A stretch of DNA of 64,000 bases from Candidatus Magasanikbacteria bacterium RIFOXYC2_FULL_42_28. Its GTDB lineage: Bacteria; Patescibacteriota; Patescibacteriia; Magasanikbacterales; GWA2-37-8. The notes beneath the pieces are model-generated. The model was not told the DNA's origin and searched no databases. It worked only from the letters and a program-made list of their open reading frames with translations. The DNA lies in the NCBI GenBank assembly GCA_001784435.1, contig MFQZ01000009.1, positions 11,324 to 75,323 on the forward strand. Direction: 5' to 3'. Position 1 is the stretch's first letter. Each line of letters begins with the position of its first letter. This document shows, in pieces, positions 4,122 to 62,551 of this stretch. The position numbers were made by a program, and so were the translations under genes.

Positions 4122-5108
4122 TTAATCTTTTTTTGCTTCTGATTCAGATAGTTTTTCCCGCGCCCCTACTGCGTCAAATACCGGTTTTACATCCGGATCA
4201 TCTAAATCCATCCCTTCAATTTTACTGCGCACGATGGCGTTCCAAACATCAGTCTCACTCATTTTTAAATATTGGGCCATACCAACAATTACTTCATCCA
4301 AAAATTTTCTTTCCTTTTTATAACCATCATTAACCTCCAAAATATCCAGAACATCCTTAACCGTTTGGGGAGCATATGTTTCCCCATGGCAACGCAATAA
4401 ATACTTTTTCATTATGTCCCTAGTCAATCGTTCAGTAACAGCCTCATCAAACAATCTAAACCTCGAACTTGAAGAGCCCTGAGTTCTATCGTGTTCTGAA
4501 TAACCCCCTCTTGATTTACCCAAACGCACCGGCACCATACCATCTAACATATGTTCTATCACCCAAGCCGCCGCTCTTTTAACTATTGAATCAATCTTTT
4601 GTTCTTCTAAGAGATTATATGAAATAGCGTGAACTTTTTCGTGAATCATTGTATGTAAAACATTAGCAAACATCAAATTCTCATCAACAATCAAATGTCC
4701 TTTTGTTTTTTGCTTTTGACCGCCCTGAATCCAGGCCTTCGCAACCAAAAGCTTGGCATCCAAAAAAATTTTATTAGCGTGAGGGGAATAAAATCCATCA
4801 AAAGCGCTCCCACTTTCTTCCAGCTTTTTAAAATCTTCCACTACAACTTCGGCTTCGTTAAAATTTAATTTCTCTGGACTAACACCACTTTTCGCGCCAA
4901 TTTCTTCAAAAATATTTTGCAGTTCAACCATATTAACTCGTGACAAAAATTCCTCAACCGCTTTTGACCACACCTCAAATGAGCTCCTGTCTGATTTTTC
5001 AGTAAATAATCTTTCACGAACCGGCTCCTCTGCTTGGTCAAGCAAAGTTTGAAATCTTTCCGGTTGCATTGGCCGGCCACGAAAATCAATTATCTCTCTC
5101 GGACTCAT
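4122..5108 (-). CDS. Hypothetical protein with an HExxH zinc-metallopeptidase motif
   Basis: 328-aa ORF containing HTMIHEKVHAISYN. It ends 8 nt upstream of the AAA+ gene on the same strand. Confidence 0.45.
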   Translation of the reverse strand: MSPREIIDFRGRPMQPERFQTLLDQAEEPVRERLFTEKSDRSSFEVWSKAVEEFLSRVNMVELQNIFEEIGAKSGVSPEKLNFNEAEVVVEDFKKLEESGSAFDGFYSPHANKIFLDAKLLVAKAWIQGGQKQKTKGHLIVDENLMFANVLHTMIHEKVHAISYNLLEEQKIDSIVKRAAAWVIEHMLDGMVPVRLGKSRGGYSEHDRTQGSSSSRFRLFDEAVTERLTRDIMKKYLLRCHGETYAPQTVKDVLDILEVNDGYKKERKFLDEVIVGMAQYLKMSETDVWNAIVRSKIEGMDLDDPDVKPVFDAVGAREKLSESEAKKD

Positions 5109-5189
5109 AAATATAATAAATCAAAACAACATCACTATAATACCATATCTTGCCTTTTTCCACAAAATATGGTAAATTTACCGCAAAAT

Positions 5190-6440
5190 ATGCCATTTTT
5201 TAATTTACAACACACCGACAACCGCGCCCGCGCCGGCGTTCTCCATACTGCTCATGGCGATATTGCAACGCCTTGCTTTATGCCCGTCGGCACCCAAGCC
5301 ACTGTTAAAACTTTGGATTCTTTGGATTTGGAAAATTTAAACGCGCCAATAATTTTAGGAAATACTTACCACTTGCATTTGCGTCCGGGCGAAGATTTGA
5401 TTGACACGGCCGGTGGATTACATAAATTTATGAATTGGAAACGACCGATTTTGACTGACTCGGGTGGATTTCAAGTTTTTTCACTTGGTCTACAAAAGGA
5501 CACCAAATTGTCATTTCGAACCGAGCGTAGCGAGCGTGAGAAATCTCCATCCGGTAAACAATACAATAATGGAGATCCCTCGCTTGACGCTCGGGATGAC
5601 AGCAAGAACGGCAACGAAAAACTCGTAAAAATCGACGACGACGGCGTTACCTTCCGCTCGCACATTGACGGCTCTACCCATCGCTTTACCCCCGAATCCG
5701 CCATTGAAACTCAACACAAACTCGGCGCCGATATAATCATGGCTTTTGACGAATGCACACCTGATCGGGCTTCGCCTGGCTACGCCCGACAAGCCATGGA
5801 ACGAACACATCTTTGGGCCGAGCGCTGCATTACTGAACACAAAAAAGAAACTAACCGCCACGGCTACCCCCAATTTTTATTTGGCATAATCCAAGGCGCC
5901 AACCATCAGGACTTACGCGAAGAATCTGCGAAATTTATTTGCGCGCAAGATTTTGACGGCATCGCGGTCGGCGGTGAATCTATCGGCTACAATATGGAAG
6001 CCACTGACGAAATTTTAAAATGGGTGCACCCGTATTTACCAACTAATAAACCACATTACGCAATGGGGATGGGGCTTGATCCAGCTGATTTACTCGTCGC
6101 GGTTGAAAATGGCATTGATATGTTTGATTGCGTCGCGCCGACACGATTGGCTCGGCATGGAATGATATTTACAAAAACAAAAGATAAAAGTGGTAAACAT
6201 AGAATGAATATAAAAAACAGTAGTTTTGCTACTGATTTTAGTCCGATTGAGCTGGATTGCACTTGTCACACCTGCCAAAATTACACGCGCGCGTATATCC
6301 ATCATTTATTCGCGGCCGAGGAGATGACCGCCATGCGCCTGACATCCATTCACAATTTACATTTTATGGTAGATTTGATGAAACAAACACGCGAGGCAAT
6401 TTTAAATAATAATTTTGCGGAATTTAAGAAAAATTTCTAA
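5190..6440 (+). CDS. tgt: Queuine tRNA-ribosyltransferase with a ~30-aa repeat-derived insertion
   Basis: MPFFNLQHTDNRARAGVLHTAHGDIATPCFMPVGTQATVK, ILTDSGGFQVFSL, and a C-terminal zinc site CTCHTCQNYTRAYIHHLF. The start is chosen by N-terminal similarity to Tgt (M-x-F-x-L...GRAR). Confidence 0.85.
   Translation: MPFFNLQHTDNRARAGVLHTAHGDIATPCFMPVGTQATVKTLDSLDLENLNAPIILGNTYHLHLRPGEDLIDTAGGLHKFMNWKRPILTDSGGFQVFSLGLQKDTKLSFRTERSEREKSPSGKQYNNGDPSLDARDDSKNGNEKLVKIDDDGVTFRSHIDGSTHRFTPESAIETQHKLGADIIMAFDECTPDRASPGYARQAMERTHLWAERCITEHKKETNRHGYPQFLFGIIQGANHQDLREESAKFICAQDFDGIAVGGESIGYNMEATDEILKWVHPYLPTNKPHYAMGMGLDPADLLVAVENGIDMFDCVAPTRLARHGMIFTKTKDKSGKHRMNIKNSSFATDFSPIELDCTCHTCQNYTRAYIHHLFAAEEMTAMRLTSIHNLHFMVDLMKQTREAILNNNFAEFKKNF
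5508..5596 (+). mobile_element. RPE-like palindromic repeat (family 1), complete copy inserted in-frame in tgt
   Basis: The copy reads TTGTCATTTCGAACCGAGCGTAGCGAGCG...GAGAAATCTCCATCC...AATGGAGATCCCTCGCTTGACGCTCGGGATGACA. Both hairpin ends are present, and it translates as KLSFRTERSEREKSPSGKQYNNGDPSLDARDDS. Confidence 0.6.
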
Positions 6441-7048: not shown

Positions 7049-7055
7049 CGAGCGA

Positions 7056-7176
7056 AATGTCAAATTTCCAATTTCCAATGTCAAACCAAATCCAAATTTC
7101 AAATAACAAATACCGAATTTGACATTTTTACTTTGACATTGATTGGAAATTGGAAATTTGGATTTTGAAATTATCA
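7056..7176 (+). repeat. Long palindromic AATTTCCAATTTCCAATGTCAAA...TTTGACATTGGAAATTTGGATTTTGAAATT element (family 2)
   Basis: ~120 bp imperfect hairpin starting 8 nt after the rlmH stop. Four other copies occur at 12119, 19341, 43964 and 62441. Confidence 0.7.
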
Positions 7177-9180: not shown

Positions 9181-9204
9181 ATACCTTTTAATTTCCAAAT
9201 CCAC

Positions 9205-9304
9205 TTGTCATTCCGACAACGAAGGAGGAATCTCTATCCCGTTGGCTATTGCAGGCCAAATGGAGATCCCTCGTCGGATGCGAATCCTCACTCGGGATGA
9301 CAAA
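9205..9304 (+). mobile_element. RPE-like palindromic repeat (family 1), intergenic copy
   Basis: TTGTCATTCCGACAACGAAGGAGGAATCTCTATCCC...CAAATGGAGATCCCTCGTCGGATGCGAATCCTCACTCGGGATGACAA. Confidence 0.65.
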
Positions 9305-9348: not shown

Positions 9349-10857
9349 ATGTTTTTCAAACTCCAAACCGCCGCCACCGTCGGCCTAGACGCTCGCCCCG
9401 TTGATGTAGAAGTAGACATCAGCAAAGGCCAAACGATGTTCAACATCGTCGGCCTCGCCGACACATCCATCAAAGAAGCGCGCGACCGCGTCCATTCGGC
9501 TTTGAAAAATTCCGGATTTAATTATCCGTTTAATTTTCGGATTTTAATAAATTTAGCGCCGGCGGATTTACCAAAAGAAGGCACGGGCTATGATTTGCCG
9601 ATAGCGGTTGGACTGATTGCCGTGTCGCAAAACATCGCTTTGAATACCGCGGACTCCTTGCTCGTGGGACAGTTGGCATTGGACGGTGCCGTGCGCCACA
9701 CCCCCGGGATTTTACCAATGGCGGTGTATGCCAAATCCGCCGGTTGTCGCGCCTTGTATGTGCCGGCAATGGACGCGCCCGAGGCGGCGCTCGTGCGGGG
9801 TCTGACAATTTATCCGGTCAAAAATTTAACGCAGATAATGGATCATTTAACCGGCAAAGATTTAATCGCGCCCTATGTGGCCGAAGCACCAGCGCCATTT
9901 ATCGCGGACGCGGGCGGGTTAGATATGAGCATGATTAAAGGCCAAGAATTCGCCAAGCGCGCGTTAGAAGTCGCGGCCGCCGGTGGCCATAATATTTTGT
10001 TGTCCGGCCCACCCGGTTCGGGAAAAACTTTGCTCGCCCGCACTTTGCCTTCTATCTTACCACCACTACTCACTGACGAAGCATTAGAAATTACCAAAAT
10101 TTATTCTATCGCTGGCCTGTTGCCATCTGGTTTAATTATGGAACGACCATTTCGCGGACCACACCACACCATTTCGCATGTCGCGCTTGTGGGCGGTGGA
10201 AGATGTCCGCGCCCGGGCGAAATTTCACTGTCACATCGCGGGGTTTTATTTTTAGATGAATTTCCGGAATTTCCGCGCACAGTTTTGGAGGCGCTCCGCC
10301 AACCTTTGGAAGATGGTCAAATTACCATTGCCCGCGCGCACGGCTCTTTAACTTTTCCCGCGCGTTTTATTTTAGTGGCCAGTCAAAATCCGTGCCCCTG
10401 TGGCTACAATTCGGACCCCGACAAGGCCTGCACTTGCTCATCAGCGCAAATTTCCAATTACACGCGCAAAATCAGTGGACCGATTTTGGATAGAATTGAT
10501 TTACAAGTAGAAGTCCCCCGCGTGCCGTTTGAAAAATTATCCGATTCGTCTTTGGCCGAATCATCGGCCGTGATTGCCGAGCGCGTGCGCGTGGCGCGTG
10601 ACCGCCAAACCGAACGACTGGCCAACACCAAAATTTTAACCAACAGCGAAATGGGTAATGCCGAAATTCGCGCTCATTGCCAATTAGACAAAGAATCCGT
10701 GGCGCTACTCCGTAGCGCGGTTGACCGCTTACATTTATCCGCGCGAGCGTATGGCCGAATTTTAAAATTGGCCAGGACGATTGCAGATTTGAATGCGCGT
10801 GAGAATATTGAGGTGGTGGATATTGCGGAGGCGCTACAGTATCGGGGGAAGGAGTAA
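9349..10857 (+). CDS. comM: Mg-chelatase-like AAA+ ATPase, YifB/ComM family
   Basis: 502 aa. It has an N-terminal Lon-like domain, Walker A GPPGSGKT, VLFLDEFPEF, and a C-terminal Mg-chelatase subunit ChlI domain. Confidence 0.85.
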   Translation: MFFKLQTAATVGLDARPVDVEVDISKGQTMFNIVGLADTSIKEARDRVHSALKNSGFNYPFNFRILINLAPADLPKEGTGYDLPIAVGLIAVSQNIALNTADSLLVGQLALDGAVRHTPGILPMAVYAKSAGCRALYVPAMDAPEAALVRGLTIYPVKNLTQIMDHLTGKDLIAPYVAEAPAPFIADAGGLDMSMIKGQEFAKRALEVAAAGGHNILLSGPPGSGKTLLARTLPSILPPLLTDEALEITKIYSIAGLLPSGLIMERPFRGPHHTISHVALVGGGRCPRPGEISLSHRGVLFLDEFPEFPRTVLEALRQPLEDGQITIARAHGSLTFPARFILVASQNPCPCGYNSDPDKACTCSSAQISNYTRKISGPILDRIDLQVEVPRVPFEKLSDSSLAESSAVIAERVRVARDRQTERLANTKILTNSEMGNAEIRAHCQLDKESVALLRSAVDRLHLSARAYGRILKLARTIADLNARENIEVVDIAEALQYRGKE

Positions 10858-10870
10858 ATAAAATTTCAAA

Positions 10871-10969
10871 TTGTCATTTCGACGACGAAGGAGAAATCTC
10901 TATCCCAATCGATTACCAATGGAGATCCCTCGTCCCGACTAAGTCGGGAGTCCTCGCTCGGGATGACAA
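10871..10969 (+). mobile_element. RPE-like palindromic repeat (family 1), the fullest copy
   Basis: TTGTCATTTCGACGACGAAGGAGAAATCTCTATCCCAATCGATTACCAATGGAGATCCCTCGTCCCGACTAAGTCGGGAGTCCTCGCTCGGGATGACAA, 13 nt after the comM stop. Confidence 0.7.
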
Positions 10970-12036: not shown

Positions 12037-12118
12037 ATACCGGTACCCCTGATTTGCTAACTGAATAGTATAGCACAAATTGGCATTTTTGTCAAGATGA
12101 GGTATAATATCCCTGAAA

Positions 12119-12228
12119 TGACAAATGTCAAATTTCCAATTTCCAATCAAATCCAAATTTCCAATATCAAATTAGACATTTTGATTTTGACATTGATTTG
12201 ACATTGGAAATTTGGATTTTGAAATTAT
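12119..12228 (+). repeat. Family 2 long palindromic element
   Basis: TGACAAATGTCAAATTTCCAATTTCCAATCAAATCCAAATTTCC...TTTGACATTGGAAATTTGGATTTTGAAATTATCAC. It lies in the divergent intergenic region and ends 6 nt before the pbp start. Confidence 0.7.
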
Positions 12229-18934: not shown

Positions 18935-19339
18935 ATGTTAACCGATCAATATCGTTTAAAAAAAGTGCGGGATTTTAATATGCTCATGGAGCGTGGACGC
19001 TGGGCAGGCGGGGCGCTTTTTACAGTTAAATGGCTTAAATTAGCGGACCCTGGCATCAGATTGCCAAAGGCAATCGGTGCAGGGCCAGAATTGAAAAAAT
19101 TTATAGAGCAATTGCGTTTTGCTTTTGTGGTGGGTTTGAAGGTGAGTAAAAAGGCGGTTGAGCGCAATCGCTTGAAACGTCAGATGCGGGAGGTTGTTAG
19201 ATTGATGATTAAGGATGGGCGAGTTAAAAGCGGGTTTTATGTGATGGTGGTAGCGAAGGGCGAGGCGCTGGGGAAAGAGTATGGTAAAATTGAGAAAGAA
19301 ATTGAGGGTTTATTAAAGAGGATCGGCGTGGCAAGTTAA
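18935..19339 (+). CDS. rnpA: Ribonuclease P protein component
   Basis: 134 aa, basic, located just after rpmH. The RNR-like motif KKAVERNRLKRQMRE is present. Confidence 0.75.
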   Translation: MLTDQYRLKKVRDFNMLMERGRWAGGALFTVKWLKLADPGIRLPKAIGAGPELKKFIEQLRFAFVVGLKVSKKAVERNRLKRQMREVVRLMIKDGRVKSGFYVMVVAKGEALGKEYGKIEKEIEGLLKRIGVAS

Positions 19340-19340
19340 T

Positions 19341-19452
19341 AATGTCAAATTTCCAATTTCCAATGTCAAATCAAATCCAAAGCTCAAATTACGAATTTGA
19401 CATTTTGATTTTGACATTGATTTGACATTGGAAATTTGGATTTTGAAATTAA
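19341..19452 (+). repeat. Family 2 long palindromic element
   Basis: AATGTCAAATTTCCAATTTCCAATGTCAAATCAAATCCAAAGCTCAAATTACGAATTTGACATTTTGATTTTGACATTGATTTGACATTGGAAATTTGGATTTTGAAATT. It starts 2 nt after the rnpA stop and ends 1 nt before the yidD ATG. Confidence 0.7.
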
Positions 19453-19453
19453 T

Positions 19454-19711
19454 ATGCTTGTAAAGAAAATATTGCTGATTCCGCGCGTGGTAGTTTTATT
19501 ATTTATTAGATTATATCAGAAAACAATATCTCCTGATCATGGCATTTTTAAAAATTTATTTCCACATGGGTATTGCCGGTTTTATCCTACCTGTTCTGAA
19601 TATGGTTATCAGGCGATAAAGAAAGGGGGGTTGGTGGTGGGTGGTTTAAAAACTATTTGGAGAATTTTGCGGTGTAATCCGTGGAATAAAGGCGGGGTGG
19701 ATTTGCCATAG
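19454..19711 (+). CDS. yidD: Membrane protein insertion efficiency factor YidD
   Basis: [39 protein letters not shown] is the YidD/haemolytic-domain signature. The ATG at 19454 is used because the track's start lies inside the repeat. Confidence 0.8.
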
Positions 19712-22262: not shown

Positions 22263-22305
22263 TTTGTCATTTGTCATCCCGAGCGCAGCCGAGGGATCCC
22301 TTAAA
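22263..22305 (+). mobile_element. Family 1 repeat, solo half-copy (TTGTCATCCCGAGCGCAGCCGAGGGATCCCTTAAAC)
   Basis: It matches the left arm of the 22610-22712 copy. Confidence 0.5.
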
Positions 22306-22591
22306 CCCATTCTGCGCTTAAATCTTTCCAATGCGGATTGATTTGTTTAATTAAAAATTCTTTTTTGTCTCGACGCCAACTCTTTAACTGTTTCTCTCGG
22401 GTTATCGCCGTGTTGATATCTTGATAGTGTTCATAAAAAACTAGTCTGCCAACATCATATTTTTTTGTAAATCCTTCAACTAATTTTTGTTTATGTTCAG
22501 AAAGTCGTTTTTCTAAATTATTTGTAACGCCGGTGTATAGCGTGCCACTATCACTTGCCAATATGTAAACATAATAATTGTGCTGTTTCAT
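22301..22591 (-). CDS. GIY-YIG nuclease-domain protein (UPF0213-like)
   Basis: YYVYILASDSGTLYTGVTNNLEKRLSEHK is the GIY-YIG core. The start is taken at MKQHNYYVYIL. Confidence 0.65.
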   Translation of the reverse strand: MKQHNYYVYILASDSGTLYTGVTNNLEKRLSEHKQKLVEGFTKKYDVGRLVFYEHYQDINTAITREKQLKSWRRDKKEFLIKQINPHWKDLSAEWV

Positions 22592-22609
22592 AGATTTGTA
22601 AATGTGATC

Positions 22610-22712
22610 GTCGTTTGTCATTCCGAGCGTAGCCGAGGAATCCCTTAAACTTATTATTGTACAAATACTATCTGTAAGGGATCCCTCCGCTCGCTAAGGC
22701 TCGGTCGGGATG
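22610..22712 (+). mobile_element. Family 1 repeat (variant subtype with both arms)
   Basis: TTGTCATTCCGAGCGTAGCCGAGGAATCCCTTAAAC...TAAGGGATCCCTCCGCTCGCTAAGGCTCGGTCGGGATGACAAG. Confidence 0.6.
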
Positions 22713-22720
22713 ACAAGCGA

Positions 22721-36187: not shown

Positions 36188-38905
36188 ATGAAGAAACTTG
36201 TTATTATAGATGGGAACGCAATAATACATAGGGCCTATCACGCCATTCCGCCCATGAACACCAAAAACGGGATGATGGTCAATGCGGTGTATGGGTTTAC
36301 TTCCATGTTGTTGCGCGTTTGGAAAGATTTAAAGCCGACACATATTGCCGTCACTTTTGATATGCGCGGTCCGACTTTTCGGCATGAAAAATTTAAGGAA
36401 TACAAAGCCACGCGCGTGAAAGCGGATCAGGAATTGTATGATCAGATTCCTTTGGTGCACAATGTTGTTCGTGCTTTTAATATTCCGATTTATGAAAAGG
36501 CCGGTTATGAGGCCGACGATGTGATTGGCACGGTCGCTCGCATGGTAGAAAATAAAAAAGAGGTTGAGACGTATATTGTGACGGGTGATAAAGATACTCT
36601 ACAGTTGATTGAGCCAGGGGTGAAAGTTTTTACCTTGCGTAAAGGGATGAGTGATACGGTAATTTATGATGCCGAGGGTGTAAAAGAAAAATTTGGATTT
36701 TTACCGGATAAAATGGTGGATTACAAAGCGCTGGCCGGTGATGCGTCGGATAATATTCCGGGGGTGCCGGGGGTGGGAGAGAAGACGGCGACAGATTTGA
36801 TTCAGAAGTTTGGGGGGATTGATGAGATTTATGATAATATCAAAAATCAAAAATCAAATATCAAAGATATTAAGGCGGGTGTCTTGAAAAAATTGATTGA
36901 CGGCGAAGAGTCGGCGCGGATGAGTTTTGAACTTGCGACGATTGACCGCAATGTTCCGGGGGTGGATTTTAAGTTGGAAGATTGCGTGGCAAAAGAATTT
37001 GACCGCGAGAAAGTGGTTAAGATTTTTCAGGAGTTGGAGTTTATGTCGTTGTTGAAGCGTTTACCCGGCGAAGCATTAGCGAAGACGGGGTTGCCGGGGG
37101 CGAGTGGGGATGGAGATCCCTCGCTTGACACTCGGGATGACAAACAAAAAAAAGTCCGAGCGAAATTTAAAGTTGATGAAATAAAGACAAAAGATGAAGT
37201 TGAGAAATTAGTTGAGCAGATTCGTAAAACAAAATCATTTGCCTGCCGTGAGGCCACGGCTGGACGTGAAGTTTATAATTCAGAATTGTTTGGTGTGGCG
37301 GTTATTGTTTCTGGCGCCGGATATTTTATTAGTGAAAAATTATTAAAAGAATTTTTGCCGGTATTTGAATTTTCGGATTGTGAATTCGTTGGTCATGATT
37401 TAAAACAGTTAATCAAAATTTTAAAACTGCAGGGCGTGGAAATAAAAAATAAATTGTTTGACACGATGATCGCGTCGTATCTGCTGGAACCGGGCAGTCG
37501 GGCGCATGACAGCGCCAGTATTGTTTTGAAAGTGTTAGGCCAAGAATTACCAGCCGGTGCCGGGCAGAATAGTTTGTTTGGGGCGGATATGCTTGCGGTA
37601 ACACAAGAATTATACCAACTATCTTTGGCGGCCGAAAAATTAAAAAAAGAATTAGTCGCGATTAGCGATTTTGGTTTAATGGAAAAAATAGAGATGCCAC
37701 TTTTGCCGGTCCTCGCGCAAATGGAATTAAACGGTATTGCCGTGGATTTAAAATTACTACAAAAATTATCCGAACAAGTGACGGCGGAAATTAAAACCGT
37801 GAGCGCGACTATTTTTAAATTGAGTGGAACGGAATTTAATATCTCGTCGCCGACACAATTGCGCGAAGTGCTGTTTGAAAAAATGGAAATTCCAGTGGAA
37901 GGAATTAAAAAAGGCAAAACCGGTTTGTCCACTTCTGCCGAACAGTTAGAAAAATTGCGCGGTCAACACCTAATCATTGAACATATTGAAAATTATCGCG
38001 AATTGGAAAAATTGCGCAATACCTATATTGATGTTTTGCCGACTTTGATAAATAAAAAGACCGGTCGGATTCACACCACTTTTAATCAGGCGGTCGCGGC
38101 GACTGGGCGCCTGTCATCGTCTGATCCAAATTTACAAAATATTCCCATTCGCACGGAGTTGGGGCGCAAGATCCGCAAGGCCTTTGTGGCCGAAGATGGC
38201 AATGTGCTTATTTCCGCCGATTATTCGCAAATTGAATTGCGCGTGGTGGCATCACTCGCCGAGGATAAAAAAATGATGGAAATTTTTGAGGCTGGTTTGG
38301 ATATTCACGCGGCGACAGCAGCGGCGATAAATCATGTGGATTTAAAAGATGTTACCAAGGACATGCGTCGCGCGGCCAAGGAAGTAAATTTTGGCGTGTT
38401 GTATGGCATGGGCGCATATGGCTTGGCTTGGCGGGCCGATATTCCCCAGTGGCAAGCCAAAGATTTTATTGATAAATATTTTAGTGAATTTAGTGGTGTG
38501 AAAAAATATTTAGACGCGACTTTGGAATTTACCAAAAAAGAGGGATACTGCGAAACACTGTTTGGTCGGCGCCGGTATATTCCGGAATTAAACGCCAGCA
38601 ACCACCAATTGCGGATGGCCGGCGAACGGATGGCGATTAATCATCCGATTCAGGGGACGGCCGCGGATTTGATTAAGATGGCGATGATAGAAATATCAAA
38701 ATGTAAATATCAAAATGAAAAATTATTGAGCGACGATGTGCGAATGATATTACAAGTGCACGACGAATTGGTGTTTGAAGTAAAAAAAGAATTGGCTGAT
38801 GAAGTCGGTAAAAAGGTAAAAGAAATTATGGAGGGTGTGGCCAAATTGCGCGTGCCGATTGTGGTGGAGGTGAATGTTTCTAAAAGTTGGGGGGAGATGA
38901 AATAA
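36188..38905 (+). CDS. polA: DNA polymerase I (5'-3' exonuclease, 3'-5' exo-like and polymerase domains)
   Basis: 905 aa. The polymerase motifs are RRAAKEVNFGVLYGM (motif B) and QVHDELVFEV (motif C). The N-terminal FEN-like domain is present. Confidence 0.9.
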   Translation: MKKLVIIDGNAIIHRAYHAIPPMNTKNGMMVNAVYGFTSMLLRVWKDLKPTHIAVTFDMRGPTFRHEKFKEYKATRVKADQELYDQIPLVHNVVRAFNIPIYEKAGYEADDVIGTVARMVENKKEVETYIVTGDKDTLQLIEPGVKVFTLRKGMSDTVIYDAEGVKEKFGFLPDKMVDYKALAGDASDNIPGVPGVGEKTATDLIQKFGGIDEIYDNIKNQKSNIKDIKAGVLKKLIDGEESARMSFELATIDRNVPGVDFKLEDCVAKEFDREKVVKIFQELEFMSLLKRLPGEALAKTGLPGASGDGDPSLDTRDDKQKKVRAKFKVDEIKTKDEVEKLVEQIRKTKSFACREATAGREVYNSELFGVAVIVSGAGYFISEKLLKEFLPVFEFSDCEFVGHDLKQLIKILKLQGVEIKNKLFDTMIASYLLEPGSRAHDSASIVLKVLGQELPAGAGQNSLFGADMLAVTQELYQLSLAAEKLKKELVAISDFGLMEKIEMPLLPVLAQMELNGIAVDLKLLQKLSEQVTAEIKTVSATIFKLSGTEFNISSPTQLREVLFEKMEIPVEGIKKGKTGLSTSAEQLEKLRGQHLIIEHIENYRELEKLRNTYIDVLPTLINKKTGRIHTTFNQAVAATGRLSSSDPNLQNIPIRTELGRKIRKAFVAEDGNVLISADYSQIELRVVASLAEDKKMMEIFEAGLDIHAATAAAINHVDLKDVTKDMRRAAKEVNFGVLYGMGAYGLAWRADIPQWQAKDFIDKYFSEFSGVKKYLDATLEFTKKEGYCETLFGRRRYIPELNASNHQLRMAGERMAINHPIQGTAADLIKMAMIEISKCKYQNEKLLSDDVRMILQVHDELVFEVKKELADEVGKKVKEIMEGVAKLRVPIVVEVNVSKSWGEMK
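37109..37144 (+). mobile_element. Family 1 repeat half-copy embedded in-frame in polA
   Basis: ATGGAGATCCCTCGCTTGACACTCGGGATGACAA translates as GDGDPSLDTRDDK, in the linker between the 5'-exo and 3'-exo-like domains. Confidence 0.55.
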
Positions 38906-38908
38906 ATT

Positions 38909-39046
38909 ATGATTATCTATCTATCCGGCCCCGACACCTTTCGGAGTCGGCAATATTTAAAAGAACAAGTGGAGAAGCTTAAAATTGCCCACTACTACGA
39001 TGGATACGAGAAAATTTTAGAAGATATTTTGGCTAATATATAATAA
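38909..39046 (+). pseudogene. Truncated duplicate of the holA 5' end (45-aa remnant)
   Basis: MIIYLSGPDTFRSRQYLKEQVEKLKIA matches MIIFIHGPDTFRSRQYLKEQVEKFKIA of holA at 43001. The two are ~90% identical at the DNA level over 83 bp, and the copy starts 3 nt after the polA stop. Confidence 0.6.
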
Positions 39047-39120: not shown

Positions 39121-40536
39121 ATGTCATTTATAAATCGTGAACAAGAGTTAAAAATGCTAAATGAAAAATGGCAATCAAATATCGCTCAGTTTTTTATTAT
39201 TTATGGTAAACGCCGCGTTGGCAAGACTGAGTTGATTAAACAATTTATCAAAGACAAACCAGCGTTATATTTTTTAGCCGATAAGCGCACGACGGCGGAT
39301 CAATTGCGGGAGCTGGGGCAAATAGTGGGAAATTATTTTAAGGATGAAATTCTGATTAGCAATGGTTTTAGTGATTGGTTGGAAGTATTTCTATATTTAA
39401 AAACAAAGACAATCACCGAACCTTTGATTTTGGCGATAGACGAATATCCGTATTTGGTTGAAAATGATAAATCCACCAGTTCGCTTTTTCAAAAGGGTTG
39501 GGATGAATATTTAAAAAATACTAAAATATTTTTGATACTGTCCGGGTCCAGCATCGCCATGATGGAATCGGAAACGCTGAACCAAAGCGCGCCGTTGTTT
39601 GGCAGGCGTACCGGTCAAATTTTGGTTGACCCATTAAATTTTTTGCAATCGCGCCAATTTTTTCCAGAGAAAAATTTTTCTGATTTTTTAAATATCTACA
39701 CTATTACCGGTGGCATGCCGGCGTATTTGAAACAGTTTGAAGAGGGCGCGGGAATGTCCGAAGAGATTAAGAATAAAATTTTTAACAAAACCGCTTTTTT
39801 ATACAACGAAGTGGAGTTTACCCTGAAAGAAGAGTTGCGTGAACCAAAAAATTATTTAGCAATTTTGCGCGCCATTGCACTCGGGAAAAGAAAGTTAAGT
39901 GAAATTGTTAATGAAGTCGGGATGGACACAGCCGCCACCAACAAATATCTTTCGGTGCTTATTAATTTGCGTTTGGCGGAACGGGAGGTGCCGGTAACCG
40001 AGAATAAGCCGGAGAAGTCGCGACGCGGTTTGTATAAAATTTTGGATAATTTTTTTGGATTTTGGTTTCAATATATTTTTCCTTATAAAAGTTATTTGGA
40101 AATGGGCAATTATAATTATGTTTTGGAGAAAATGTTTAGCGGTTTAAAATATAATGATAAGGTTAATTCCGGTTTCAAACTTATTGTCGCGCAAGTTTAT
40201 GAACGCGTCGCGATTGAATTGCTGCCCGCTTGGCAAGATAAAATTTTCTCGTTTGAGCGCGTTGGTCGTTATTGGGACAATAATCAAGAAATTGATGTGG
40301 TGGGGATAAGTTTGCCGGAAAAGAAAATAATTTTCGGTGAGTGTAAGTGGTCCGAAAAACCAGTGGGGACAGATATTTATGAAGAATTAAAAAAGAAAGC
40401 GGAAAAAGTGGAGTGGAATTTGGGCGATAGAAAAGAATTTTATATTTTATTTAGTAAGAGTGGTTTTACCGAGGCAATGATAAAAATAGCGAAGAGCGAA
40501 GGTGTGTTTTTAGTGGAGAAGGATACTATGAAGTAA
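39121..40536 (+). CDS. AAA+ ATPase (archaeal-ATPase/DUF234 type)
   Basis: The Walker A is IIYGKRRVGKTEL and the Walker B LAIDEYPYLV. The C-terminal DUF234-like domain is present. Confidence 0.65.
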   Translation: MSFINREQELKMLNEKWQSNIAQFFIIYGKRRVGKTELIKQFIKDKPALYFLADKRTTADQLRELGQIVGNYFKDEILISNGFSDWLEVFLYLKTKTITEPLILAIDEYPYLVENDKSTSSLFQKGWDEYLKNTKIFLILSGSSIAMMESETLNQSAPLFGRRTGQILVDPLNFLQSRQFFPEKNFSDFLNIYTITGGMPAYLKQFEEGAGMSEEIKNKIFNKTAFLYNEVEFTLKEELREPKNYLAILRAIALGKRKLSEIVNEVGMDTAATNKYLSVLINLRLAEREVPVTENKPEKSRRGLYKILDNFFGFWFQYIFPYKSYLEMGNYNYVLEKMFSGLKYNDKVNSGFKLIVAQVYERVAIELLPAWQDKIFSFERVGRYWDNNQEIDVVGISLPEKKIIFGECKWSEKPVGTDIYEELKKKAEKVEWNLGDRKEFYILFSKSGFTEAMIKIAKSEGVFLVEKDTMK

Positions 40537-42956: not shown

Positions 42957-43000
42957 AGTGTTTTGCATAACATTGGGGAACATATTATAATGAGCTTACT

Positions 43001-43963
43001 ATGATTATATTTATACACGGCCCCGACACCTTTCGGAGCCGGCAATATTTAAAAGAACAAGTGGAGAAATTTAAAATTGCCCGCGATCCACAGGGGTATA
43101 ATGTTGTGTTTGCGGACGCGGTGAGCGACGAGCCGGGGAAAATTTTAGGGGAGATTTCCAGCGCGCCGTTTTTGGCAGATAAGAGAATGATTGTTGTAGA
43201 AAATATTTTGGCATGCAAGGATAAGGATTTTATGGCTACGCTCATTGAAATGGTAAAAAATAATAAAGTGCCGGAAAGTAATGTTGTTTTGTTTTGGCAA
43301 GGCGAAGATAAATCAAAAATAAAAGAAGTGGATGAATTGGATAAATTATTGAAAAAAGAAAAATACGCGAAAGAATTTGATATGTTAACGGGCGCGCAAT
43401 TGTCCGTTTGGATAAAACAGGAATTTGTTAAATCAAAAGCGACTGTCAGTATGCCGGCGTTAAATTTTTTGGCGCAGAACGCGGGTGGTGATATGTGGCG
43501 ATTGTCGTCTTTAATCGCGCAATTGTCGGCCTATGCCACTGGGCGCGAGGTCGGCGTGGAAGGTGTAAAATTATTTTTGGATGAAAAGGTTGATGATAAT
43601 GTTTTTAATATGGTGGAAGCGGTCGTGTCGGGCAATCGTAAGCAGGCGTATAAATTATTAACCGAGCAAAGGCGGTTAGGCGAAGAGGACGGAAAATTAT
43701 TTGGTTTGATATTGTGGCAATTTCGGATTTTGGTGAATTTAAGGTCGTTGTTTGAAACTGAAGATAATTTAACGGCTGATCAAATGGCTAAACAACTTGG
43801 TTTGCATCCGTTTGTCGTGAAAAAGAATTTGGCACTGGTAAAACGAATGAGCTCGGCACGCTTAAAAGAAATTTACGAGATGCTTTTGGATATTGATAAA
43901 AAAATAAAAACCGGGCGGGGGGACTTGGGGTTGTTGGTTGATGTGCTGGTGGGACGCTTATGA
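43001..43963 (+). CDS. holA: DNA polymerase III delta subunit
   Basis: 320 aa with the HolA N-terminal fold IFIHGPDTF...FLADKRMIVVEN and a C-terminal helical domain. Confidence 0.75.
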   Translation: MIIFIHGPDTFRSRQYLKEQVEKFKIARDPQGYNVVFADAVSDEPGKILGEISSAPFLADKRMIVVENILACKDKDFMATLIEMVKNNKVPESNVVLFWQGEDKSKIKEVDELDKLLKKEKYAKEFDMLTGAQLSVWIKQEFVKSKATVSMPALNFLAQNAGGDMWRLSSLIAQLSAYATGREVGVEGVKLFLDEKVDDNVFNMVEAVVSGNRKQAYKLLTEQRRLGEEDGKLFGLILWQFRILVNLRSLFETEDNLTADQMAKQLGLHPFVVKKNLALVKRMSSARLKEIYEMLLDIDKKIKTGRGDLGLLVDVLVGRL

Positions 43964-44066
43964 ATGTCAAATTTCCAATTTCCAATGTCAAATCAAAGCC
44001 AAAATGACAAATTTGACATTTTTATTTTGACATTGATTGGAAATTGGATATTTGGATTTTGAAATT
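43964..44066 (+). repeat. Family 2 long palindromic element
   Basis: It starts immediately after the holA TGA as AATGTCAAATTTCCAATTTCCAATGTCAAATCAAAGCC...TTTGACATTGATTGGAAATTGGATATTTGGATTTTGAAATT. Confidence 0.7.
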
Positions 44067-44101
44067 AGTAAAGTCAGACACATACAGAAGCTTGAGTTTA
44101 A

Positions 44102-61144: not shown

Positions 61145-61215
61145 AAGGGCCCGTAGTATAACGGTAATACACGTCCATGGCATGGATGAGTTAAGGGTTC
61201 GATTCCCTTCGGGTC
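61145..61215 (+). tRNA. tRNA-Ala (GGC)
   Basis: The acceptor GGGCCCG/CGGGTCC has G3:U70 and A73. The anticodon loop is ATGGCAT and the T-loop TTCGATT. Confidence 0.8.
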
Positions 61216-61216
61216 C

Positions 61217-61243
61217 ACAAAACTTCCTGTTCAAGGAAGTTTT
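61217..61243 (+). terminator. Terminator AACTTCCTGTTCAAGGAAGTTTTTT
   Basis: A perfect 7-bp stem plus T6, directly after the tRNA. Confidence 0.6.
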
Positions 61244-61255
61244 TTAAAAAATTTT

Positions 61256-62407
61256 ATGTCTTTTTCCATCGGGATTGTCGGATTGCCAAATGTCGGTAAA
61301 TCAACTTTATTTAATGCTTTGACGCGCAGTAAGCAAGCGGACGCTGCCAATTATCCTTTTTGCACTATTGATCCGAATGTGGGCGTAGTCGCGGTTCCGG
61401 ATGAGCGGTTAGCAAAGTTATCCGAAATTTCTAAATCAAAAAAAATTATCCCAACGGTGATTGAATTTGTGGATATTGCCGGTTTGGTAAAAGGCGCGAG
61501 CGAAGGCGAGGGTTTGGGTAATAAATTTTTATCACATATTCGCGAAGTGGACGCCATCGCGCAAGTAGTGCGCGCGTTTTCGGATAGTAATGTTATTCAT
61601 GTGAATAATAAAGTGGACCCAAAGAATGATAGCGAGGTGATTAATTTAGAATTGGCGTTGGCGGATTTACAAGTTGTTACCAAAAGATTAAGCACTGCCA
61701 AAAAAGATACCAAAGGTTCGGTGGCAAAAGACAAAGAAAAAGAAATTGAATTATTGACAAAAATTAATGCCCAGCTCGAGGCCGGCAAACCGGCGCGCGC
61801 GTTAGAATACAATGATGATGAAAAAATAATTTTAAAAAAATTACAGCTGTTGACAGCCAAACCGATGTTGTATGTGGTGAATACTGACGAAGGGGGCGGA
61901 ATTTCACCAATTGTTACTCCGACGACGAAGGAGGAATCTCTATCCCAATTGATTGCCAATGGAGATCCCTCGTCCCGACTAAGTCGGGAGTCCTCGCTCG
62001 GGATGACAACGCAAATAAACGTTTGTGCCAAGTTGGAAGCGGAATTGGCAGATTTGAGTGTGGAGGAAGCCAAAGAATATTTAAAAACTGCTGGCATTAC
62101 CGAAACCGGTTTGGATAAATTAGTTGTCGCCAGTTACAAATTATTGGATTTAATAACTTTTCTAACTTCGGGCGAACCGGAAACGCGCGCTTGGACGGTA
62201 AAAAATGGCGCGAGGGCCCCGGAAGCGGCCGGAGTCATTCACACGGATTTTATCAAAGGTTTTATTAAAGCCGATGTTTGTGACTGGCAAGATTTTGTTA
62301 CGCACCACGGTTGGTCAAAAATAAAAGAAACCGGAAAACTCCGATTAGAGGGAAAAGATTATGTCGTGAGAGATGGAGATGTTGTGTATTTCCATGTTAG
62401 TACCTGA
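61256..62407 (+). CDS. ychF: Ribosome-binding ATPase YchF (Obg family) with a repeat-derived insertion
   Basis: IGIVGLPNVGKSTLFNALT, NYPFCTIDPN and the C-terminal TGS domain (VVRDGDVVYFH). It is 383 aa, against ~363 aa typical for YchF. Confidence 0.85.
   Translation: MSFSIGIVGLPNVGKSTLFNALTRSKQADAANYPFCTIDPNVGVVAVPDERLAKLSEISKSKKIIPTVIEFVDIAGLVKGASEGEGLGNKFLSHIREVDAIAQVVRAFSDSNVIHVNNKVDPKNDSEVINLELALADLQVVTKRLSTAKKDTKGSVAKDKEKEIELLTKINAQLEAGKPARALEYNDDEKIILKKLQLLTAKPMLYVVNTDEGGGISPIVTPTTKEESLSQLIANGDPSSRLSRESSLGMTTQINVCAKLEAELADLSVEEAKEYLKTAGITETGLDKLVVASYKLLDLITFLTSGEPETRAWTVKNGARAPEAAGVIHTDFIKGFIKADVCDWQDFVTHHGWSKIKETGKLRLEGKDYVVRDGDVVYFHVST
61911..62009 (+). mobile_element. Family 1 repeat, full copy inserted in-frame in ychF
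   Basis: TTGTTACTCCGACGACGAAGGAGGAATCTCTATCCCAATTGATTGCCAATGGAGATCCCTCGTCCCGACTAAGTCGGGAGTCCTCGCTCGGGATGACAA is 96% identical to the 10871 copy and translates as IVTPTTKEESLSQLIANGDPSSRLSRESSLGMT. Confidence 0.65.
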
Positions 62408-62440
62408 TTATTCTTATGGAGTTAGAATAAGTATTAATAA

Positions 62441-62549
62441 TTTCAAAATCTAAATTTCCAATGTCAAATCAATGTCAAAATCTTAATGTCAAATTTAGTA
62501 TTTGAGCTTTGGATTTGATTTGACATTGGAAATTGGAAATTTGACATTT
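62441..62549 (+). repeat. Family 2 long palindromic element (variant)
   Basis: TTTCAAAATCTAAATTTCCAATGTCAAATCAATGTCAAAATC...GATTTGATTTGACATTGGAAATTGGAAATTTGACATTTCG, located between convergent ychF and the methyltransferase. Confidence 0.6.
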
Positions 62550-62551
62550 CG

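Follow-up and report, generated by a model that had tools for sequence, protein, structure and literature searches.

Palindromic Element Within ychF

The ychF gene of Candidatus Magasanikbacteria bacterium RIFOXYC2_FULL_42_28, a member of the Patescibacteria (candidate phyla radiation, CPR), contains a palindromic DNA element of 97 nt in the segment that encodes the loop between motifs G4 and G5 of the YchF G domain. The gene lies in a 64,000-nt stretch of contig MFQZ01000009.1 (positions 11,324 to 75,323; assembly GCA_001784435.1), hereafter the window, to which positions refer unless stated otherwise. We consider it probable that a non-autonomous repeat, built like a MITE (a transposable element of the miniature inverted-repeat kind) and behaving like a Rickettsia palindromic element (RPE), has colonized this loop as a translated passenger, and that the repeat is putatively mobilized in trans by a nuclease.

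The element (61912..62008, forward strand; TGTTAC...ATGACA, 97 nt from its TG to its CA end) is nearly identical to an intergenic copy: in a repeat search of the window, 61909–62009 aligned without gaps to 10869–10969 at 94% identity over 101 nt. The six differences are all transitions, and 91 of the 97 positions of the TG..CA span are shared with this sibling copy. The 43-nt right arm occurs exactly twice in the window, against an expectation of 0.00 from dinucleotide shuffles. The family has the architecture of an imperfect palindrome of ~97–101 nt with TGTCAT...ATGACA ends, and the terminal inverted repeats typical of MITEs are present (TTGTCATYYCGA...TCGGRATGACAA). As a single strand, the ychF copy folds into a long hairpin with a side stem (free energy −38.9 kcal/mol, z = −3.25), and the copy at 10871 reaches −38.4 kcal/mol (z = −3.58); the ychF copy has two changes in its left terminal repeat, which weaken the terminal stem. 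Rfam holds no family for the element and recognizes only four tRNAs in the window, and a literature search with the terminal 10-mers of the element returned primers only.

Elements of the window type are free of stop codons in three of the six reading frames. The ychF copy is in frame and encodes IVTPTTKEESLSQLIANGDPSSRLSRESSLGMT, which corresponds to YchF residues 219–251 (codons 61910–62008). A model that had read the window without database searches (the original prediction) described a near-identical copy within ychF, at 61911–62009, that adds 33 residues and makes the protein ~20 aa longer than usual. The copy, the peptide, and the excess length are all borne out (383 aa, compared with 354–361 aa in most close homologs); the codon phase that those boundaries imply is one base off. 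In the ychF frame, the sibling copy differs by five non-synonymous changes and one synonymous change, and constraint on the insert at the protein level is not apparent.

The host gene (61256..62407, forward strand), a GTPase gene of the essential type, is an intact open reading frame (ORF) of 383 codons with matches in Pfam (MMR_HSR1, 1.5e-23; YchF-GTPase_C, 5e-34), in the Protein Data Bank (PDB; alignments to 8kie_y at 5.6e-107, 1jal, and 2dby), and for its AlphaFold2 (AF2) model. It encodes G1 (GLPNVGKST), G3 (DIAG), G4 (NTDE), and G5 (CAK) motifs, and its G domain with an NxxE-type G4, inserted helical domain, and C-terminal TGS-like domain identify it as a YchF/OLA1 P-loop ATPase. Its homologs are YchF proteins of Magasanikbacteria and other Patescibacteria. 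Immediately upstream of ychF is a tRNA gene (61147–61217). The N-termini of several database YchF entries (P0036, P0095, and P0104) bear spurious extensions (MAWKRSRVQ.PYGP...) that resemble read-through of an upstream tRNA; these are gene-calling artifacts and not insertions.

Location of the Insert in the YchF Fold

The insert lies inside the G domain, preceded by G4 (NTDE, 209–212) and followed by G5 (CAK, 257–259), as placed by alignments to YchF of E. coli (8kie_y), H. influenzae (1jal), and T. thermophilus (2dby); the E. coli counterparts of the NTDE and INVCAK of the window protein are NVNE and VPVCA, respectively. The original prediction had put the insert between the G and TGS domains and raised the helical linker as its possible position. 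Neither placement agrees with the PDB alignments or the AF2 model, in which the insert forms the G4–G5 loop and is part of neither the helical domain nor the linker to the TGS domain.

The AF2 model was built from an alignment of 117 homologs (mean predicted local distance difference test score [pLDDT] 75.6, predicted template modeling score 0.69), an earlier model from 21 close homologs having been unusable (pLDDT 40.5), and it superimposes on the YchF–50S structure 8kie_y with template modeling scores of 0.86/0.90 (Foldseek). Residues 211–250 average a pLDDT of ~48–51 and are flanked by confident strands at 204–209 and 253–256, with a weakly predicted helix at 225–234 within the insert. The model suggests a flexible, Ser/Thr-rich surface loop of 33 residues; the insertion site would thereby be exposed and compatible with the fold, as at the sites of RPEs. 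An intein or self-splicing intron was rejected, the insert being a 33-aa low-complexity peptide and Rfam showing nothing but tRNAs in the window.

Empty Site and Age of the Insertion

The segment from NxxE to the residue before [SC]AK comprises 16–20 aa in about 105 of 120 YchF homologs, and this short loop is hypervariable among the CPR proteins compared. The closest relative (P0002, YchF 87% identical; locus L001, with the same gene order) has a loop of 20 aa, LPISDFKFQNADIGAEVIYV, of a type (xxxxDF[KR]LQ...) that recurs in other clades. This short loop at a syntenic, orthologous locus is an empty site, which the original prediction had suggested might be found among close relatives. At the DNA level, the window and L001 share ...ATTTCA, after which the window has CCA, the element, and ACGCAA, and L001 has 39 nt encoding DFKFQNADIGAEV; relative to P0002, these 13 codons are exchanged for P + 33 aa + TQ.

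Identity between the element and its sibling (94%) exceeds that between the ychF DNA of the window and of L001 (about 85%); therefore, the two element copies parted after the lineages split, and the element is younger than its host gene. The same relation is seen between loci L004 and L005, which carry elements identical at 70 of 71 positions within ychF genes that are about 82% identical. Together with the five residue-changing differences out of six between the sibling copies, this indicates conservation of the DNA and not of the protein, in support of the original prediction.

The sequence AATTTCA precedes both near-identical copies (61900–61906 and 10862–10868), followed by CCA or A and then by ATTGT. 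Upstream of the ychF copy, ATTTCA is ancestral coding sequence, being present also in the empty-site relative L001. The common flank suggests either a target preference or an intergenic copy that was made from the ychF copy together with some of its flank.

The G4–G5 Loop as a Hot Spot

At least five ychF lineages carry elements in this loop, drawn from at least four element subfamilies. The palindromes of the relatives belong to the same superfamily and occupy the same site in the same phase, except in P0051. P0004 (L003) has a 97-nt element that is identical to the window element at 71 of 97 positions; the idea that it is inverted relative to the window element was discarded, since the reverse complement matches at only 65 of 97. 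Elements of 73 nt are present in P0005/6 (L004) and P0007 (L005), and one of the same length and a different subfamily (GTCATTCCCGC...) in P0008/P0060 (L007); P0051 (L132) carries a 107-nt element of yet another subfamily, with another phase at its left end. The second-closest relative, P0003 (L002), has a loop of 22 aa encoded by CTGGATTCCCGTTTACACGGGAATGACAG, which corresponds to the right half of an L007-type element. The long loops of P0076, P0072, P0010, P0111, and P0117 look like further cases, as judged at the protein level. Across 117 aligned sequences, rare-insertion columns internal to YchF occur solely in the G4–G5 loop, and in a neighbor-joining tree with the loop masked the carriers are scattered, each nested among empty alleles.

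In L002, this half-element (CTGGATTCCC...GGGAATGACAG) is kept in the loop DNA at 848–946, and a full palindrome of 122 nt (1322–1443) immediately follows the ychF stop codon.

Alternative Origins of the Filled Loop

Three routes fit the occupation of the loop: repeated break repair or gene conversion at a permissive site, import of filled alleles, and element-by-element replacement. The second of these has a rival explanation at its core, in which one or a few insertions into ychF took place, the filled allele spread by homologous recombination, and the element was later overwritten by copies of the local subfamily. Filled alleles of different clades do have common flanks (xxxGS[SP] before and [DSTA][AT](P)QI after the element) that are unlike those of their empty sisters, and L007 and L131 are 90% identical across the gene while the whole loop is exchanged (45 nt replaced by 18 + 73 + 6 nt). 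Just 3′ of the element, the window has greater similarity to L003 (0.80) than to L001 (0.70), its sister, and competence and pilus genes adjoin ychF in these genomes. However, the common flanks are short and alike mainly as protein (the left-flank DNA of L005 and L007 matches at about half of its positions), QINV/CAK is found also in some empty alleles (e.g., P0036), and element replacement would be needed as a second process to account for four subfamilies and for the 94% match to a local copy. We regard import as unlikely, if the most credible of the rivals.

An adapted loop, in which the Ser-rich peptide or the mRNA hairpin is useful (in ribosome contact, regulation, or mRNA stability), would be in keeping with the recurrent occupation of the same loop in several lineages, with an ORF that is intact in two assemblies, and with the changes noted above that weaken the terminal stem of the ychF copy. 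Against this, the substitutions relative to the sibling copy are 5 non-synonymous to 1 synonymous, the peptides differ wholly between subfamilies, model confidence over the insert is low, and most relatives lack an insert, all of which makes such a function improbable. Marginally less probable again is a single ancient insertion that was inherited vertically and lost repeatedly, with the survivors homogenized by gene conversion. Most carriers share the position and reading phase of the element, and the half-element of P0003 shows that decay by deletion occurs; yet the short loops of about 105 of the 120 homologs are conserved within clades, span all major clades, and bear no trace of a palindrome, the carriers are nested singly among empty alleles, and the subfamilies differ in length and sequence, with P0051 also out of phase at its left end. 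Misassembly due to repeats is well known in metagenome-assembled genomes, yet an artifact or a ychF pseudogene can be dismissed as exceedingly improbable: a second, independent assembly (L130) carries the identical gene and insert (contigs of 164 kb and 285 kb, identical protein), which excludes misassembly, the frame and all GTPase motifs are intact, and comparable in-frame elements occupy this position in several relatives from unrelated samples.

Further Copies in the Window

At least seven full or partial copies of the family are present in the 64-kb window (hairpin z-scores −2.4 to −5.3), which is therefore home to a multicopy palindromic repeat of the ~100–150 bp class, as in genomes with RPEs. 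Three conserved housekeeping genes (ychF, tgt, and polA) contain in-frame, stop-free copies. In tgt (ORF 5034..6440), a full copy of a related subfamily (5509..5601, forward strand; pattern search, Pfam, and PDB) is read in a phase different from that of the ychF copy, giving the peptide …LSFRTERSERE…DARDDS…. It forms part of a 44-aa insert (residues 153–196) immediately following DSGGFQVFSLG; in the PDB alignment, one residue stands at this point in Z. mobilis Tgt, and the insert breaks the Pfam TGT match into two stretches. In polA (36188..38905), a right half-element, ATGGAGATCCCTCGCTTGACACTCGGGATGACAA (37108..37143, forward strand; pattern search and Pfam), is in frame within the linker that joins the 5′–3′ exonuclease domain to the 3′–5′ exo-like domain.

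The remaining full copies are intergenic. The sibling of the ychF copy, assigned to the same subfamily by repeat search and alignment (10872..10968, forward strand), is flanked on one side by the stop codon of a Mg-chelatase/ComM-like gene (9349..10857) and on the other by a terminator-like hairpin. A diverged copy of the same family (9206..9302, forward strand; repeat match 9203–9303) has a fold of −43 kcal/mol (z = −5.25). A full palindrome (22616–22715; pattern and repeat search) and a partial right arm of 46 nt (22266–22311; 87% identical to the corresponding arm) stand on either side of a GIY-YIG gene.

Distribution Across Phyla

One genome per species was scanned for the arm motif GATCCCTCG-N5-35-CTCGGGATGACA. 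The matches listed include Acidobacteriota, Verrucomicrobiota, Gemmatimonadota, Bacteroidota, Planctomycetota, Chloroflexota, Proteobacteria, Omnitrophota, and CPR groups, among others. Several of the 153 matches listed lie inside long ORFs, and Pfam confirms two in-frame host genes: a GH2 glycosidase of Prevotella sp. (L052), with LSSRAQSRDLS inserts three times, between and within domains, and an FtsX/MacB permease of Acidobacteriota, with an in-frame insert ending in ...LGMTS (…RLGMTS…). In-frame copies of the superfamily are therefore not confined to CPR. The permease and a BNR-repeat protein are the hosts on the acidobacterial contigs L062 and L089; the BNR-repeat protein contains the in-frame, arm-derived peptide …VIPSEARDL….

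Association With GIY-YIG Genes

The window encodes a small UPF0213/Slx1-like GIY-YIG protein (22301..22621, reverse strand; 96–106 aa; Pfam GIY-YIG, 4e-17), the best PDB matches of which, 1zg2 and 1ywl, are both UPF0213 proteins; NCBIfam has no model that matches it. The gene is bracketed (22266..22716) by the full palindrome at 22616–22715 and the right arm at 22266–22311, that is, by inverted arms whose sequence is of the type found in the short palindromes. Both halves of the 22616–22715 palindrome align with the arms around the GIY-YIG homolog of L133, and the right arm of the subfamily to which the ychF and 10871 copies belong aligns, side stem included, with the arm downstream of the GIY-YIG gene of L155. 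In L046 (Terriglobia), a locus found through the arm motif alone, a left arm (TTGTCATCCCGAGCG...GAGGGATCTGCAC) and a right arm (GTGCAGATCCCTCG...CTCGGGATGACAA) exactly enclose a GIY-YIG homolog.

In a survey anchored on the nuclease, arm 8-mers were scored within 200 nt of the gene in 80 metagenomic GIY-YIG loci. The upstream flank carried them in 49 of 77 loci and the downstream flank in 51 of 74, and 40 of 71 loci had them on both sides; among control windows from the same loci, 56 of 485 (11.5%) contained arm motifs. Alignment of the upstream flank with the reverse-complemented downstream flank scored ≥30 in 43 of 64 loci, compared with 33 of 300 shuffled pairs. The arms are 30–90 nt long with (T)TGTCAT at their outer ends, and they covary: GTCATTGC pairs with GCAATGAC, and GTCATCGC with GCGATGAC.

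A survey of the GIY-YIG superfamily published in 2006 treats the prokaryotic Slx1-like proteins as vertically inherited and related to repair, with no mention of flanking repeats (PMC1564403). Our literature search retrieved no paper that ties UPF0213 or GIY-YIG proteins to bacterial palindromic repeats, although the library searched was limited and this is no proof of novelty. The association suggests a nuclease-linked autonomous partner for the palindromes, which is plausible but unproven.

Proposed Mechanism and Points Against It

In the explanation that we favor, an RPE-like coding palindrome in ychF, the element would have entered the loop once this lineage had diverged from that of P0002, whether it was inserted de novo, with the loop remodeled in the process, or was copied from a filled allele by gene conversion; the missing target-site duplication fits either route. 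It would be translated as a tolerated loop of 33 residues, a selfish passenger and not an adaptation. The family may be mobilized in trans by the small Slx1-like (UPF0213) GIY-YIG nuclease, the gene of which is bracketed by the same arms, and movement would consist of a cut in or close to the hairpin or cruciform and subsequent copying during repair, with no DDE transposition. The short palindromes could then represent the two arms of a GIY-YIG-carrying element from which the gene has been lost.

Several points weigh against this explanation, beginning with the event itself, which is an insertion with replacement of 13 ancestral codons and not a clean insertion. Target-site duplications of 1–10 nt, judged by eye, were seen in none of 11 copies, the boundaries of the ychF copy included; CAAY directly precedes TGTCAT in 8 of the 11, with no mirror image on the 3′ side. 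Given the 13 replaced codons and the lack of a duplication, break repair, gene conversion, or import of a filled loop allele would account for the insertion at least as well as classical transposition. Of the recent transposition into ychF that had been proposed, a recent insertion at the DNA level is thus upheld and classical transposition, along with the duplications that might have marked the boundaries, is not. The common flanks of the filled alleles may reflect a single old insertion that spread by recombination, in place of repeated insertion. The insert is only presumptively translated. For the nuclease, the link is a statistical association, and the enzyme could be a passenger that homes into palindromes. 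When loci are anchored on the arm motif, a GIY-YIG gene is nearby in only 1–2 of 120, so that the association is visible only when starting from nuclease genes. We know of no nuclease activity or target for the UPF0213/Slx1-like family. Finally, the analysis covers 64 kb of one genome plus short contigs of relatives.

A broader proposal, which we advance only tentatively and consider rather doubtful, is that palindromes of 70–120 nt with TGTCAT ends are non-autonomous members of an undescribed, pan-bacterial class of mobile elements, with autonomous members of ~400 bp that carry a UPF0213/Slx1-like GIY-YIG gene between inverted arms of ~30–90 nt and move, without a transposase, by structure-specific cleavage and repair copying. 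If such a class exists, it would account for the lack of target-site duplications, for flanks that are remodeled or co-converted, and for a YchF loop that has been filled repeatedly, as well as for the many odd peptides in frame in housekeeping genes from CPR to Bacteroidota and Acidobacteriota (...VIPSEARDL..., ...LSSRAQSRDL..., ...LGMT...).

Comparison With Known Systems

RPEs are palindromic repeats that interrupt unrelated housekeeping genes without breaking the reading frame, at positions that the protein fold can accommodate (PMC10969869). The ychF family shares with RPEs palindromes of ~100–150 bp both between and inside genes, in-frame positions in unrelated housekeeping genes, extra peptides at fold-compatible sites, and the lack of a known transposase. 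It differs in its host, a member of the Patescibacteria/CPR (Magasanikbacteria), and the likeness drawn is one of behavior; by host, it is not a member of the RPE families proper. Unlike RPEs, its arm motif occurs in many phyla, one protein loop has been hit repeatedly by different subfamilies, and the arms of the superfamily also bracket GIY-YIG genes. To our knowledge, arm-bracketed GIY-YIG genes have not been described for RPEs (RPE-1 to RPE-8/10), for which the primary papers are Ogata et al. 2000 (Science 290:347) and Ogata et al. 2002 (Genome Res 12:808).

Intragenic MITEs (ERIC, Coxiella QMITE1, and those of Anabaena) offer a looser comparison; they are likewise small, non-autonomous, and multicopy, with terminal inverted repeats and occasional in-frame fusions (PMC10969869; PMC5896051), but the ychF family has no target-site duplication, and its candidate partner is a nuclease gene of ~95 aa between arms. 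A classical MITE derived from a DDE element was rejected, there being no target-site duplication in 11 copies and no transposase partner seen; in the search for a parent insertion sequence, matching ends were found only around GIY-YIG genes, the window not having been searched exhaustively for transposases. With homing GIY-YIG elements of the I-TevI type, the family has in common a GIY-YIG gene in repeated, apparently mobile DNA, no target-site duplication, and flanks that are possibly co-converted; it differs in that there is no intron or intein, the gene lies between long inverted repeats, and most copies lack it.

Elements related to REP/REPIN-RAYT and IS200/IS605 are also palindromic and without target-site duplication, and are mobilized in trans by a single-copy gene, as is proposed for the ychF family. 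Repetitive extragenic palindromes (REPs) are 20–40 nt long, with GTAG/CGTC heads (PMC3733652). Unlike these, the units of the ychF superfamily are 70–120 nt long and end in TGTCAT, and identity with REPs was set aside on both length and ends. No Y1/HUH transposase was seen in the window, within the same non-exhaustive search.

In-frame coding palindromes have been described as a peculiarity of Rickettsia, and our literature search found no report of palindromic or MITE-like coding elements in CPR. The ychF element extends RPE-like coding palindromes to a further host group of phylum rank, with a hot spot in a single protein loop. Such behavior in a CPR bacterium, with three genes hit within 64 kb, a YchF loop recolonized by different subfamilies, and in-frame copies in other phyla, would make coding palindromes a general route of protein-loop evolution as well as a general source of annotation noise. 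The arm-bracketed UPF0213 genes offer a testable candidate for the long-missing mobilizing enzyme, and a possible function for a widespread, uncharacterized nuclease family.

Other Repeats in the Window

A second, AT-rich palindromic family of ~114 nt (GAAATTTGACATT.../AATGTCAAATTTCC...) is represented at 7049–7173, 12115–12228, 19337–19457, 43956–44071, and 62435–62550. The last of these copies lies directly 3′ of the ychF stop codon, before a convergent methyltransferase gene. In addition, an 83-nt direct repeat (38908–38990 and 43000–43082, 90% identical) is located at the starts of the ORFs that begin at 39121 and 43001; paralogy of these gene starts is its probable origin, with no relation to the palindromes.

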